Below are positions 4,032 through 37,920 of a stretch of 37,920 nucleotides of DNA, piece by piece. Numbering within the stretch: position 1 is the stretch's first letter; each line of letters starts with the position of its first letter. The stretch lies in the UHGV virus genome UHGV-0126763; one strand, 5' to 3'. The DNA is from a virus. The notes beneath the pieces are model-generated. The model worked only from the letters and a program-made list of their open reading frames with translations, did not search any database and was not told where the DNA came from. A program made the translations under genes and the position numbers.

Positions 4032-4358
4032 TCAAATAAGTGGTTTGCTGCCTAATTTCATTTTCTGGCGACCAACACAAGTCACACCCATTTCACTGCG
4101 TGGCTTGCTGTACCATGTGCGCTGATTCTTGCGTTCAATACGTTGCAGGTTGCTTTCAATCTGTTCGTGGTATTCAGCCAGCACCGTAAGGTCTATCGGA
4201 TTCAGTGCGCTTTCTACTCGTGATTTCGGTTTGCGATTCAGCGAGAGAATAGGGCGGTTAACTGGTTTTGCGCTTACCCCAACCAACAGGGGATTTGCTG
4301 CTTTCCATTGAGCCTGTTTCTCTGCGCGACGTTCGCGGCGGCGTGTTTGTGCATCCAT
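4032..4358 (-). CDS. N: Antitermination protein N
   Basis: N-terminal arginine-rich motif MDAQTRRRERRAEKQAQWKAANPLL matches lambda N as recalled; AGGAG RBS; nutL lies immediately upstream. Confidence 0.9.
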   Translation of the reverse strand: MDAQTRRRERRAEKQAQWKAANPLLVGVSAKPVNRPILSLNRKPKSRVESALNPIDLTVLAEYHEQIESNLQRIERKNQRTWYSKPRSEMGVTCVGRQKMKLGSKPLI

Positions 4359-4587: not shown

Positions 4588-4631
4588 TCACCTTCATGGT
4601 GGTTAGTGCGTCCTGCTGATGGCTTAAAATA

Positions 4632-4712
4632 TACCTACAGGTAAAACCGTTGTCTATACCTGCAGGTAAATAAAATTGGTGTGAGAGTTTACCTGTTTGA
4701 ATTTTCAGGTAA
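4632..4712. promoter_or_regulatory. OL operator cluster (PL region)
   Basis: TACCTACAGGTA at 4632-4643, perfect palindrome TACCTGCAGGTA at 4657-4668, split half-sites TACCTG-N10-CAGGTA at 4690-4711; same motif family as the OR sites. Confidence 0.6.
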
Positions 4713-4730
4713 TTAATTTTTTGGATTGAT

Positions 4731-4754
4731 ATAAAAAAGCCCGCTTTGCGGGCT
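4731..4754 (-). terminator. Intrinsic terminator after the repressor operon
   Basis: Minus strand AGCCCGC-aaa-GCGGGCT stem-loop followed by TTTTTTAT, directly after the stop of the 4766..5062 gene. Confidence 0.7.
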
Positions 4755-4765
4755 GAAAGGAGATG

Positions 4766-5062
4766 TCAGAAGCTATTTGGATTGCTTGGCCATTGCGGCA
4801 ATTTTGATTCTACCGGGGTGTGTTTGGGTTTGAGTCCGTTTAAGTAGTCAAGACGCTCAATGGCGCATTTATACATAGCAATCTGATCTGATGACATGTC
4901 GTCATATGACATGCCTTTGAACTTCTTAATTATCGTTTCTGCCTCATGTATAAGATTCTTCTTCCTCATGAGTTCAGCTGTATGCTTAGAGCTTACAGGA
5001 GATAACTTTGCCCATATGAAGCAGATGATTACAACAGCGACTACTATGCCGGGTATAAACAT
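4766..5062 (-). CDS. Small membrane protein co-transcribed with repressor (rex-position moron)
   Basis: ORF-track frame 4766..5080 begins with TTG overlapping the cI stop; in-frame ATG at 5062 with GAGGA upstream gives MFIPGIVVAVVIICFIWAKL, a single N-terminal TM helix plus about 75-aa soluble domain. Confidence 0.6.
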   Translation of the reverse strand: MFIPGIVVAVVIICFIWAKLSPVSSKHTAELMRKKNLIHEAETIIKKFKGMSYDDMSSDQIAMYKCAIERLDYLNGLKPKHTPVESKLPQWPSNPNSF

Positions 5063-5076
5063 TTGCTGCTTTATCC

Positions 5077-5763
5077 TCAAACTTTTGGCAGATCGTCCTG
5101 GTCTACGTACCTGGTGTGTTTCACAATAGCTGAAACAAAATGCATTTTATCAACTTCTTCAACAGGAAGAGTGATTGGGCGGTGATCACTGTTTATGCTA
5201 CTAAACTGATAATCACCGTCTCTTGTTTTGTTCATGATCTTTATCATGTTGTGACCGTCTTTGGTCCTTACAAAGACTTCATCACCTGGATGTACTGGCG
5301 TATTTGGTTCAATAACAACATATTCTCCTGACTGAATCCTTGGCCACATGCTGTCACCCTTAACCTTCAGACCGTAAGCATCTTTATCGCCGCTGTAGAT
5401 GCTTAACCAACCGGATCTGAATTCAATCATATCCACTGAGCCATCAACTCCCAAAACGGCTTCACCAATTACCGGAACAAAACCCGCACGAACGTTACCC
5501 GCAAACTCAAGATGGTCCGTAGCTCCAGCTTTACCATCTGCAAGCATGTCCATCCATCCGCGTGGGAGATTAAAAGATTTTTCAATTAGTTCCATCATAT
5601 CGTCAGCAATGCGTTTTTTTCCGCTTTTTCCTTCCGGATACAGCATTCTGGAAACGTATGATGGTTCCCTTTCTATTCGACGAGCCAACTCTGAGGCCTT
5701 TCCATTACAGAATCGGTCTCTTATCTCTATCAGCCTTAGTCGTCTTTGTTCGTATTTATCCAT
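5077..5763 (-). CDS. cI: CI-like prophage repressor (HTH N-terminal domain, S24 LexA-like peptidase C-terminal domain)
   Basis: 228 aa; C-terminal GDSMWP serine motif and later Lys typical of S24 autoproteases; divergent from cro-like gene across the operator cluster; no SD before ATG, consistent with a leaderless PRM-type transcript. Confidence 0.85.
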   Translation of the reverse strand: MDKYEQRRLRLIEIRDRFCNGKASELARRIEREPSYVSRMLYPEGKSGKKRIADDMMELIEKSFNLPRGWMDMLADGKAGATDHLEFAGNVRAGFVPVIGEAVLGVDGSVDMIEFRSGWLSIYSGDKDAYGLKVKGDSMWPRIQSGEYVVIEPNTPVHPGDEVFVRTKDGHNMIKIMNKTRDGDYQFSSINSDHRPITLPVEEVDKMHFVSAIVKHTRYVDQDDLPKV

Positions 5764-5769
5764 GATTTA

Positions 5770-5797
5770 ATTCTATCTTTGATTACCTGCCGGTAAA
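5770..5797 (-). promoter_or_regulatory. Candidate PRM-like promoter for the repressor
   Basis: Minus strand TAGAAT -10 about 6 nt upstream of the cI ATG, weak TTTACC -35 overlapping the leftmost OR site; inferred by analogy to lambda PRM. Confidence 0.35.
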
Positions 5798-5835
5798 TAA
5801 CCTATGGGTATTGATTTGCTTTTTACCTACAGGTA
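5784..5835. promoter_or_regulatory. OR operator cluster (three sites)
   Basis: TACCTGCCGGTA 5784-5795, weaker AACCTATGGGTA 5799-5810, TACCTACAGGTA 5824-5835; tripartite arrangement between divergent cI and cro. Confidence 0.65.
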
Positions 5836-35156: not shown

Positions 35157-36200
35157 TTACCCTGTAAATATGCTAAGGAATGTTTTTTGAAATGATTTGT
35201 TTTTATTTTTAGCGTTAATTAATGCTACTATACTAACTTGCAGTTTTACCATTATTGTAGCAAGTGTGTAAGTAAGTACATAACTTATTAAATAATGACT
35301 ACCTATTTTTTGACACATTATGATAAATGGGATGTGCCATAAATAAATCCAAATGGAGTTTTGGGATATGAATGAAACAACCTGCCATAATCTTAAAACC
35401 TTAAGTAAAAGAACAGCTTTGTTTGAGAGCAGATAGACTACGAATATCATAAAGGTTGCATAGGACATGTAATATATCCCAGGTGGGTACTTGTCTGACT
35501 GAGTTGGATTAAAGGCACCCAAGGTAATAATGTAATATGCAGTCATGGCAGAAAATAATAATCCACAGATAATGGTTGGGGGTAATAATTCTTTATGATC
35601 AGTGCTTGCAATTTTATAACCAATGATGAAAGCAAGTGTATAAGATATAGAGTTTGATATGTATGTCCCCAAAAGTATATAAATGCTCAACTTGTCAATT
35701 CCATTATACAATGGAATTAACTGGCTATTAATTAATAAAAATGACGCGGATATTGTTAATATCGCTTTTAAATTAAGTGTGTATAGTTTTGGAGGAATGA
35801 AAGTGGCTATCACTGATATTATGAAAAAGAGTCTAATAACCCACACATAACCAAGCCCACTGGATAATGCGAATGATGTTATTATAATTGACTTATTGTA
35901 AGTAAAGTCTTTTATATTAAAAATAAACGAAATGATTTCATTTATTAAGAAAAATGCCGCGAAGAAAATCCAAGTTGGTAAAACTAAACGGCGAAATCGA
36001 GAATTAATATATTTTATTCTGTTGCTATGGCGATGTTCGGTTACACAAAAGGACATCCCCATAACCATAAACATTAAAGGAACATCAAAGTTTCGCAGTT
36101 GAGCTAGCCATAAAGGAGGCTGGACATGGGCTAGAATGATTAGAGAAAGCCCGAGAAATCTTAAAAAATCTATTTTATCAATACGCATGACTTCGTCCAT
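35157..36200 (-). CDS. Acyltransferase family 3 integral membrane protein (putative O-antigen acetyltransferase)
   Basis: 347 aa, about 10 predicted TM segments, N-terminal IDFLRFLGLSLIILAHV motif typical of acyltransferase-3 (OafA/Oac-like); strongly AT-rich; sits between tail fiber genes and integrase. Confidence 0.8.
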   Translation of the reverse strand: MDEVMRIDKIDFLRFLGLSLIILAHVQPPLWLAQLRNFDVPLMFMVMGMSFCVTEHRHSNRIKYINSRFRRLVLPTWIFFAAFFLINEIISFIFNIKDFTYNKSIIITSFALSSGLGYVWVIRLFFIISVIATFIPPKLYTLNLKAILTISASFLLINSQLIPLYNGIDKLSIYILLGTYISNSISYTLAFIIGYKIASTDHKELLPPTIICGLLFSAMTAYYIITLGAFNPTQSDKYPPGIYYMSYATFMIFVVYLLSNKAVLLLKVLRLWQVVSFISQNSIWIYLWHIPFIIMCQKIGSHYLISYVLTYTLATIMVKLQVSIVALINAKNKNKSFQKTFLSIFTG

Positions 36201-36676: not shown

Positions 36677-37834
36677 TCATGTGACGTTACCGTCTATCCA
36701 GTCCGCCCACCATTGCATCATTTCTCTGCGCTTATCGAGATACTGAGCATGATTGTAAATTCCACGCACAGATCCGCCGTTGGCATGTGCCAGTTGCACT
36801 TCAATGGCGTCGGCAGGCCATTCGTGCTCGTTCATAATCGTGCTGAATTCATGCCTGAATCCGTGACCGCTTTCCAGACCTTCATAGCCGATTTGTTTGA
36901 TCACAAGCAATACCGCGTTCTCGCAGATTGGCTTCTTCTTATCGTTGCGCCCGGCAAAAACAAACTCTGAGACTGGTTTAGTGATGGAGCTTAGCGTAGT
37001 GAGAAGCTCAACCACCTGGTCTGACATAGGAACAACATGAATTTTGCGTCCCTTCATCACATTGGCGTCGATGGTGATAATCCTGTTTTCAAAATCGACG
37101 TTCTTCCATAGCATGGAACGAAGCTCTTTTGTTCTGAGGGCTGTGTAGCGTAAAACTTTGGTCGCAATGAGCGATACGATACTTCCTGAAAATGTTGCAA
37201 GTGCTTTGTTGAATTCCGGGATCTGGTCTGCAGGAAGAAACGGGAAGTTCTTCTTGCGGTATCCCTTCATGGCGTCAGCAAGGTCAGGTGACGGGTTATA
37301 TTTAGCCCTTCCGGTGACAATAGCGTAACGGAAAACCTCGCCGCATCTTCTGCGTGCTTTGTTGGCTCGCTCCATTGCGCCGCGATCTTCAAATCTGCGG
37401 ATTACTTCCAGCAGTTTCATCGGCTCAATATCCTGAATTTCAAGGCCGCCGATGATAGGTAAAATGTCGTCATCAAACATCTTTGCAAGTTCATTTGCAT
37501 AGCCTACTGACCAGACTTGCTTCTTGTGCTCGTACCATTCCTTGTAAATGGCGCTAAAGGAATTGTTGTTAGACGAAGCCTTTTTCGCCTTTACCGGATC
37601 GATGCCAACCGAGATGTCTTTCCTCGCAGTCCATGCTTTATCCCTTGCCTCCTGCAAAGTCATAAGCGGATATTTTCCTACGGTCAGTATTTTTTCCTTA
37701 CCGTCAATCTTGTAGCGAAGCTGCCATACCTTTTTCCCGGATACAGGGACATAAAGGTACAGGCCATTACCATCGAGAAGGCGATATGGTTTTTCTTTCG
37801 GCTTTGCTGCTTCAATCTGCTTAACGGTGAGCAT
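36677..37834 (-). CDS. int: Tyrosine integrase (P4-like family)
   Basis: N-terminus MLTVKQIEAAKPKEKPYRLLDGNGLYLYV typical of this family; C-terminal catalytic region with RHEFST and HANGGSVRGIY; ORF-track start 37870 is an upstream GTG. Confidence 0.85.
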   Translation of the reverse strand: MLTVKQIEAAKPKEKPYRLLDGNGLYLYVPVSGKKVWQLRYKIDGKEKILTVGKYPLMTLQEARDKAWTARKDISVGIDPVKAKKASSNNNSFSAIYKEWYEHKKQVWSVGYANELAKMFDDDILPIIGGLEIQDIEPMKLLEVIRRFEDRGAMERANKARRRCGEVFRYAIVTGRAKYNPSPDLADAMKGYRKKNFPFLPADQIPEFNKALATFSGSIVSLIATKVLRYTALRTKELRSMLWKNVDFENRIITIDANVMKGRKIHVVPMSDQVVELLTTLSSITKPVSEFVFAGRNDKKKPICENAVLLVIKQIGYEGLESGHGFRHEFSTIMNEHEWPADAIEVQLAHANGGSVRGIYNHAQYLDKRREMMQWWADWIDGNVT

Positions 37835-37920
37835 GGGTAAAAATCCGGTGGGTAAAATTATTTTATCCACTTTTTACCCGTCATGGAGTGCGGCTGTCAA
37901 CGATCTGACGCGAACCATGA

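Follow-up and report, generated by a model that had tools for sequence, protein, structure and literature searches.

We analyzed a short gene in the UHGV virus genome UHGV-0126763, a stretch of 37,920 nucleotides (nt) that is referred to below as the window. The gene lies on the minus strand directly downstream of a cI-type repressor gene, in the position that rexAB holds in phage lambda, and encodes a predicted membrane protein of 98 amino acids (aa) that belongs to phrog_10450, a PHROG family without assigned function. Except for a single copy in a degraded prophage remnant, members of this family were found at two kinds of sites only: behind cI, and at the site that sieA occupies in phage P22. 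These positions, together with the predicted architecture of the protein, point to a possible role in protecting the lysogen against other phages. We consider it highly probable that the gene is real and has the anatomy described here, and we grade the proposed functions separately below.

The gene between cI and the terminator

The window protein matches the phrog_10450 profile over its full length (E 1.4e-54, with residues 7-104 of the mechanically predicted open reading frame (ORF) aligned to profile positions 1-98), and the same profile is matched by all 19 aligned family members. The gene was already present in databases: the module formed by cI and the ORF is 98.2% identical to that of phage mEp043, in which the copy is gp49, a hypothetical protein, and for Shigella flexneri an identical hypothetical protein is on record from 55 contigs. 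When cI and the ORF were used together as a query, matches were obtained in 52 of 5,426 complete Escherichia coli genomes; since all 52 cover at least 80% of the query, none of them represents cI alone. The arrangement of cI, ORF and terminator is repeated in 26 IMG/VR loci and in mEp043, and no disruption of the ORF was seen in mEp043, in any of three RefSeq genomes or in any full-length IMG/VR copy (25/25 intact). In none of the copies examined was the ORF frameshifted while the terminator was kept, which is the situation that an earlier reading of the window (the sequence-only reading) had held to speak against its claim.

The ratio of nonsynonymous to synonymous substitution rates (dN/dS) was approximately 0.14 in pairwise comparisons of cI-linked alleles and approximately 0.12 in the paralogous subfamily described below; overall, the estimates lie at approximately 0.12-0.16, with individual pairs ranging from 0.12 to 0.5 on few substitutions. 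Only 10 family clusters were found among 1.84 billion representative proteins, and a profile search of 5.8 billion proteins returned 26 family proteins; wherever the source organism is named, it belongs to the Enterobacterales (Escherichia, Shigella, Salmonella, Cronobacter and Citrobacter). Members that share as little as 28-43% identity retain their length (97-114 aa). Ten residues are invariant (K34, I38, E40, A41, M56, C66, A67, L71, W91 and P92), and H27, L37, R70 and L74 are nearly so.

In most of the complete E. coli genomes that carry it, the Prokaryotic Genome Annotation Pipeline (PGAP) leaves the intact 98-aa ORF unannotated, and usually only an 'S24 family peptidase' is listed. Examples among the related loci (designated by L numbers) are L004:4066-4363 (NZ_CP026399) and L005:4065-4362 (NZ_LR890349); the ORF is annotated in a few genomes, for instance in L003 (WP_000470488.1).

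The elements that the sequence-only reading had described were all located, on the minus strand. In the order of transcription, the region from the repressor promoter to N comprises the following features:

5770..5797 (-): PRM-like promoter (TTTACC, 16 nt, TAGAAT) inside OR, found by consensus scan
5077..5763 (-): cI-type prophage repressor of 228 aa with an S24 autopeptidase C-terminal domain (PF00717, E 1.4e-17; phrog_4), first gene of the putative operon
5063..5080 (-): six-codon TTG extension (MRIKQQ) of the mechanically predicted ORF, probably untranslated, given that the family and the PHROG profile begin at the ATG
5063..5078 (-): junction of cI and ORF, too short for a promoter or a terminator, with a Shine-Dalgarno-like GAGGA at 5078-5074, read from the sequence
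4766..5062 (-): gene for the 98-aa bitopic membrane protein of phrog_10450, stop TGA at 4768-4766, identified from profile match, alignment, AlphaFold2 model and conservation
4728..4754 (-): strong intrinsic terminator of the putative cI-ORF transcript, stem AGCCCGC/GCGGGCT at 4754-4738 and T-run at 4737-4728
4628..4668 (-): OL/PL, with a PL-like promoter (TAGACA, 17 nt, TATATT; 4656..4628) and two overlapping operator palindromes, from promoter and operator scans
4032..4358 (-): lambda-type antiterminator N (PF11438 N36, E 1.5e-26; phrog_271), first gene of the PL operon and far border of the cI-N slot

The repressor falls into phrog_4, a transcriptional repressor family, and is labelled cI in the mEp043 annotation. 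The gene order, with cI (S24) followed by a 14-nt gap, the ORF, the terminator, OL/PL and N, corresponds to the layout cI-rexA-rexB-t_imm-OL/PL-N of lambda with one short gene replacing rexAB, so the rexAB position proposed by the sequence-only reading matches the lambda map. The counterpart of lambda t_imm is the terminator at 4728..4754, whose hairpin comprises 7 bp, 6 of them G-C (4754-4738), is followed by TTTTTTATAT, and lies 11 nt past the ORF stop. With a folding energy of -12.6 kcal/mol (z -2.35 relative to shuffled sequences), it agrees with the clean intrinsic terminator that had been described ahead of OL, and the terminator 22-mer is exact in 30 of 30 related loci. The operator palindrome TACCTNNNGGTA occurs in two perfect copies in OL (4632-4643 and 4657-4668) and in three copies in OR (5784-5795, 5799-5810 and 5824-5835), between cI and the divergent Cro-like gene; over the whole window, it was matched 15 times against an expectation of 3.4. 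In mEp043, a putative PL is annotated at the equivalent spot.

The -10 hexamer of the PRM-like promoter ends only 7 nt ahead of the cI ATG (cI start 5763), so the cI message is probably leaderless or nearly so, as in lambda. No terminator was found within the coding region of cI or in the gap that follows it, and no promoter-like site was found in the 14 nt that separate the cI stop from the ATG. Given the short gap and the lack of an intervening terminator, the simplest reading of the sequence is that the ORF is co-transcribed with cI. A moron in the strict sense has its own promoter directly upstream; here the gene has its own terminator, but the 14-nt gap is too small to hold a promoter, and the ORF would therefore be the distal gene of the repressor operon rather than a strict moron. 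In P22-like phages of the L034 type, discussed below, the family gene may have its own promoter.

Two further observations concern the neighborhood of the ORF in related loci. In one IMG/VR prophage (L050:3299-3980), cI aligns as two overlapping pieces, with the downstream ORF and terminator intact, which suggests that this cI is frameshifted near codon 46-50, through either a sequencing error or a defect of the prophage. Among L044-L067, the distance from the ORF to the start of N falls into several length classes up to approximately 160 nt apart (N starts at 4617-4775 in locus coordinates) in modules that are otherwise near-identical, suggesting indels in the ORF-N interval, which includes OL/PL and nutL.

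The sequence-only reading had let the repressor stop overlap the ORF. This holds for the mechanical ORF (4766..5080, 104 aa), whose TTG start (5080-5078) overlaps the cI stop TGA (5079-5077) within GTTTGA, but the conserved start is the ATG at 5062, which lies 14 nt past the cI stop and yields 98 aa. The phrog_10450 profile and all homologues start at the codon equivalent to this ATG; across 49 related loci the start codon is ATG or GTG and no other, with GTG in the mEp043 copy; and in the distant relatives L010 and L014 an in-frame stop occurs one or two codons 5' of the start. Based on these homologue starts, upstream stops and the ATG/GTG alternation, the TTG start was rejected, and it is probably not used. 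The GAGGA element overlaps the cI stop and is separated from the ATG at 5062 by 11 nt; in L034, the start is a GTG preceded by an AAGGAGG ribosome-binding site and a 5-nt spacer. The choice of start matters, because the two extra positive charges of MRIKQQ, placed ahead of the membrane helix, would reverse the predicted topology.

From its conserved start, the window protein consists of a single hydrophobic stretch (residues 1-18) and approximately 78 soluble residues, in good agreement with the single membrane span and the soluble domain of roughly 75 residues expected earlier. In all 19 aligned members the hydrophobic stretch begins at residue 1-3 and is preceded by no lysine or arginine, while the following 15 residues contain 1-4 of them; the remainder of the protein carries a net charge of 0 to +7. 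By the positive-inside rule, this distribution places the domain of approximately 78 residues in the cytoplasm, and an N-out/C-in orientation is predicted. A Sec signal peptide or lipoprotein was considered and rejected, as the N-terminus has no basic region and no lipobox. An AlphaFold2 model based on an alignment of 13 sequences reached a predicted local distance difference test (pLDDT) score of 77.8 and shows a long helix (4-47), with the membrane span continuing on the cytoplasmic side, and, beyond a loop, a second helix (58-76) that leads to an extended tail with a W-P motif; a single-sequence structure model resembles it. Behind a membrane helix of residues 1 to approximately 20, the soluble part is thus predicted to form a helical hairpin (approximately 24-47 and 58-76) followed by the conserved W-P tail.

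Neither this model nor remote homology searches, both proposed in the sequence-only reading, led to an informative match. Scans of the protein against Pfam, NCBIfam and PADLOC gave no match, nor did Pfam for any of the 19 family members; the family profile found nothing informative among PDB sequences (best E-value 1.5); and Foldseek returned no match at E <= 0.001 against PDB and BFVD. No sequence or fold similarity was detected to any solved structure, T4 Spackle and other solved exclusion proteins included, and hhalign assigned a probability below 1% to RexA, RexB, SieA, P22 orf59a and HK97 gp15.

Two prophage sites of the family

The close copies of the window gene all directly follow the same cI. 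Distant copies of 42-43% identity also follow cI, in E. coli and Cronobacter prophages (L010-L013) and on a metagenome contig (L014), with gaps of 39 and 3 nt, and L014 has its own, different, clean terminator ahead of OL/PL. Between the window and L010-L014, cI is 83-84% identical whereas the ORF is only 42-43% identical; the ORF has therefore either diverged much further than cI or been swapped for a distant allele. At closer range, the window and L005 differ at 1 site in cI and at 11 in the ORF, and the comparison with L003 gives the reverse pattern. Such mismatches between cI and ORF divergence indicate that recombination had a breakpoint at the junction, that the ORF diverges faster than cI, or that both apply. 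The cI-linked copy moves with the immunity module among virion types, as it is found in the myovirus-type window, in mEp043 and in a P22-like phage.

The second site lies in P22-like podophages, in which the family gene is flanked by ejection gene 16 on one side and by mnt or the tailspike gene on the other; it is oriented convergently to gene 16 and in the same direction as mnt. This arrangement was seen in phage N7, in three assembled contigs and in 25 IMG/VR loci. The slot is the exact site of sieA in P22, where the interval between gene 16 and gene 9 contains sieA, mnt and their promoters. A paralogous subfamily holds the SieA position (gene 16-gene 9) in 30 loci, whereas the window copy follows cI. 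In all of these sieA-slot loci (30/30), the search for SieA of type A (P22) and of type B was negative, while both positive controls were detected; the type B reference was taken from E. coli HS and identified by its FNRYPGEARKFNK motif. Leavitt et al. reported sieA in only 22 of 66 P22-like phages (PMC10883804), and the family is thus one alternative occupant of the slot. In L033 and L034 mnt was not detected, and in the ORF list of L034 the family member is the sole gene between gene 16 and the tailspike gene. Both paralogues, approximately 37% identical, occur together on one P22-like genome of 38,108 bp (IMGVR_UViG_2563366933_000009), one in the sieA slot (L037:4001-4321) and the other directly after a cI of the mEp043 type (L059:4001-4297).

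Some loci of P22-like origin deserve separate mention. Terminator-like hairpins lie beyond the family gene on the late-operon strand at L009:4954-4974 (-) and L034:3824-3843 (-), so late transcripts from gene 16 would cross the family gene antisense before termination or antitermination; antisense late transcription is known for the immI region of P22. The copy outside the two slots (P0008, 114 aa, L015:5001-5345) is the most divergent full-length member and is situated at the edge of a degraded P22-like remnant that retains gp7 and a truncated gp20, where it adjoins an Hcp gene of the type VI secretion system and a gene with a Tlde1 domain.

Elsewhere in the window, positions 14000-34700 contain a contractile-tail virion module (a DUF3383 sheath-like protein, Baseplate_J and a tape-measure protein with an SLT domain), whose closest matches are Citrobacter phage Omnitron and Salmonella phage SEN34. 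The early region attached to this module is lambda-like and includes lambda's own N protein; the window genome is a mosaic lambdoid myovirus. At 35157-36200 (-) and 36677-37870 (-), an Acyl_transf_3 membrane acyltransferase (PF01757, E 8e-22) adjoins a tyrosine integrase. In phages of Shigella and E. coli, this neighborhood is typical of serotype-conversion genes that modify the O antigen, and on the strength of this resemblance the acyltransferase is likely also expressed in the lysogen, as a second such gene of the window.

Candidate functions in the lysogen

In the explanation that we favor, the ORF would be the second and last gene of the repressor operon, transcribed from PRM in the lysogen and from PRE while lysogeny is being established, with translation beginning at the ATG 14 nt past the cI stop and the transcript ending at its own terminator before OL/PL. 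The product would be an inner-membrane protein of 98 residues that uses the helix starting at residue 1 as an anchor and exposes a compact helical-hairpin domain and the W-P tail on the cytoplasmic face (N-out/C-in). We propose that this protein may shield the lysogen against other phages by interfering with the delivery of superinfecting-phage DNA at the inner membrane, which would amount to exclusion of the SieA or gp15 kind by an unrelated protein. The reasoning behind a lysogen-protecting inner-membrane protein is that the family occupies two lysogen-expressed contexts and shares its predicted membrane placement with SieA and gp15; expression in lysogens is itself something we infer from the position of the gene. 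On balance, we lean slightly towards an anti-phage role of some kind, and we put forward the narrower proposal of lysogen protection by exclusion at DNA entry as a tentative candidate. Equally tentative is an extension to the whole family, by which phrog_10450 might be an unrecognised family of single-gene exclusion or defence systems whose effector domain faces the cytoplasm, recruited both to the rex slot and, replacing SieA, to the sieA slot; the 37%-identical paralogues of one phage would then differ in target specificity.

Several points weigh against this explanation. The positional argument is one of guilt by association, and lysogen-expressed slots also house genes unrelated to phage defence. 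A domain that faces the cytoplasm is less obviously suited than a periplasmic one to block the channel of the tail or ejection proteins. As the cI-linked copies span different virion types, they do not imply any particular phage target. The absence of sieA could merely mean that one slot takes one gene, and the 30 loci amount to few independent lineages. Finally, our literature search found no study of the gene, and no experiment or transcript data on it or on any other family member.

Among the alternatives, the one that survives best, and that we still regard as unlikely, is that the protein has no role in phage defence and is a lysogenic-conversion factor, which modulates a transporter, a sensor kinase, a protease or a similar inner-membrane protein of the host and thereby alters host physiology or fitness. 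Small bacterial membrane proteins often modulate host inner-membrane proteins, and a small size with N-out/C-in architecture is typical of regulatory membrane proteins. The window also contains another conversion gene, the O-antigen-type acyltransferase next to the integrase, and non-defence genes have been described in lysogen-expressed slots of prophages (PMC3594210). However, the family was found in prophages only, in two repressor-linked slots save for the copy in the degraded remnant, with no chromosomal non-phage homologues among the members found, and both the positional replacement of sieA and the high divergence favor a role directed at phages.

We consider it rather less probable that the protein is an abortive-infection effector, that is, a single-protein analogue of RexAB in which the cytoplasmic domain senses the phage and the protein oligomerises, depolarises or permeabilises the membrane and kills the cell. 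The slot is shared with two abortive-infection systems, rexAB and bstA, the membrane anchor is combined with a cytoplasmic domain that might serve for sensing, and the ORF has diverged much further (42-43%) than the neighboring cI (83-84%). Yet there is only one membrane helix, without a conserved polar or small-residue oligomerisation motif; no similarity was found to RexB, to holins or to any PADLOC model; and the paralogues of P22-like phages hold the slot of an entry blocker rather than that of an abortive-infection gene.

A role in the phage's own decision between lysis and lysogeny appears improbable. Here the protein would, for example, tether or inhibit FtsH, RecA or some other factor at the membrane and so stabilise lysogeny or tune induction. 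The invariable, tight linkage to one cI family and the likely co-expression with it fit such a role, as does the location of the cytoplasmic domain at the membrane, the site of FtsH action, although the FtsH idea is speculative. Against it, related prophages such as L003 already encode cIII, and the paralogues are linked to Mnt or, in L034, to no repressor, which argues against a role specific to cI. That the ORF is unexpressed or non-functional, and that the cI message simply has a conserved 3' untranslated region here, can be practically discounted: PGAP omits it in most RefSeq genomes and the Shine-Dalgarno spacing of 11 nt is rather long, but dN/dS is approximately 0.15, every examined copy is intact, and distant homologues keep frame, length and invariant residues.

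The presence of such a gene at this site will not surprise a specialist; it is the distribution over two slots, the absence of sieA, the divergence and the paired paralogues that make the family a well-motivated target. It is common in prophages of Shigella, E. coli, Salmonella and Citrobacter, and is missed by the automatic annotation of many reference genomes. The two repressor-linked slots and the two copies in one phage constitute a natural experiment on specificity, and the predicted cytoplasmic orientation would bear on how DNA entry could be blocked from inside the membrane. Should the protein have no anti-phage role, it would still be a conserved membrane protein with probable expression in lysogens, although of ordinary interest.

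Comparison with known systems

With lambda RexAB, the window gene shares its place 3' of cI, probably on the repressor transcript, with a terminator just before OL/PL and N, and its product is likewise membrane-associated and presumably expressed in the lysogen. The proteins themselves differ: RexAB consists of two genes, for a cytoplasmic RexA of 279 aa and a multi-pass RexB of 144 aa, whereas a single gene for a one-helix protein of 98 aa lies between cI and the terminator of the window. The earlier opinion that the protein is unrelated to RexA and RexB is upheld by hhalign probabilities of 0.05% and 0.5%, respectively, and by the PADLOC scan, which gave no match.

BstA is a much larger, soluble protein, and no similarity to it was detected, again with no PADLOC match. 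The resemblance lies in the arrangement, as bstA is also a single accessory gene right after the repressor and is followed by a Rho-independent terminator; in BTP1 and its relatives, it is presumed to share the repressor promoter (PMC8585504). BstA acts at sites of phage DNA replication and has an anti-BstA DNA element (PMC8585504). The cI-N interval as such is a recognised mosaic hotspot, occupied by rexAB in lambda and by bstA in phages of the BTP1 type (PMC8585504).

P22 SieA is proven to block DNA entry at the inner membrane, and a cytoplasmic location is predicted for its best-conserved motif (PMC10883804). The slot of SieA is shared by paralogues of the window protein, where sieA is absent, and SieA and the window protein are both inner-membrane proteins with a conserved part that is predicted to lie in the cytoplasm. 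In contrast to the window protein, SieA has 164-212 aa, is multi-pass, carries the motif FxRYPxEAxxFNK and belongs to phrog_7745; the window protein has one helix and 98 aa and lacks this motif, and hhalign gave a probability of 0.4%.

HK97 gp15 is a proven, moron-encoded exclusion protein that the prophage expresses and that prevents genome entry at the inner membrane (PMC3594210). Its architecture is similar, with a membrane helix that starts within the first few residues and is followed by a short, basic, helical soluble part. It differs in its length (62 aa), its place within the tail operon, where it has a promoter and a terminator of its own, its chromosomal YebO relatives and its PHROG family (phrog_5031), and comparison of the window protein with the YebO-like gp15 by hhalign gave a probability of 0.6%.

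The sequence-only reading had allowed for an ordinary superinfection-exclusion protein of known family; the only family matched was phrog_10450, with no detectable relation to SieA or gp15. Judged by these sequence comparisons, the family stands outside the RexAB, BstA, SieA and gp15 families. If it is protective, the few inner-membrane exclusion proteins with still unclear mechanisms, such as SieA, HK97 gp15 and T4 Imm, would be joined by a further small family.

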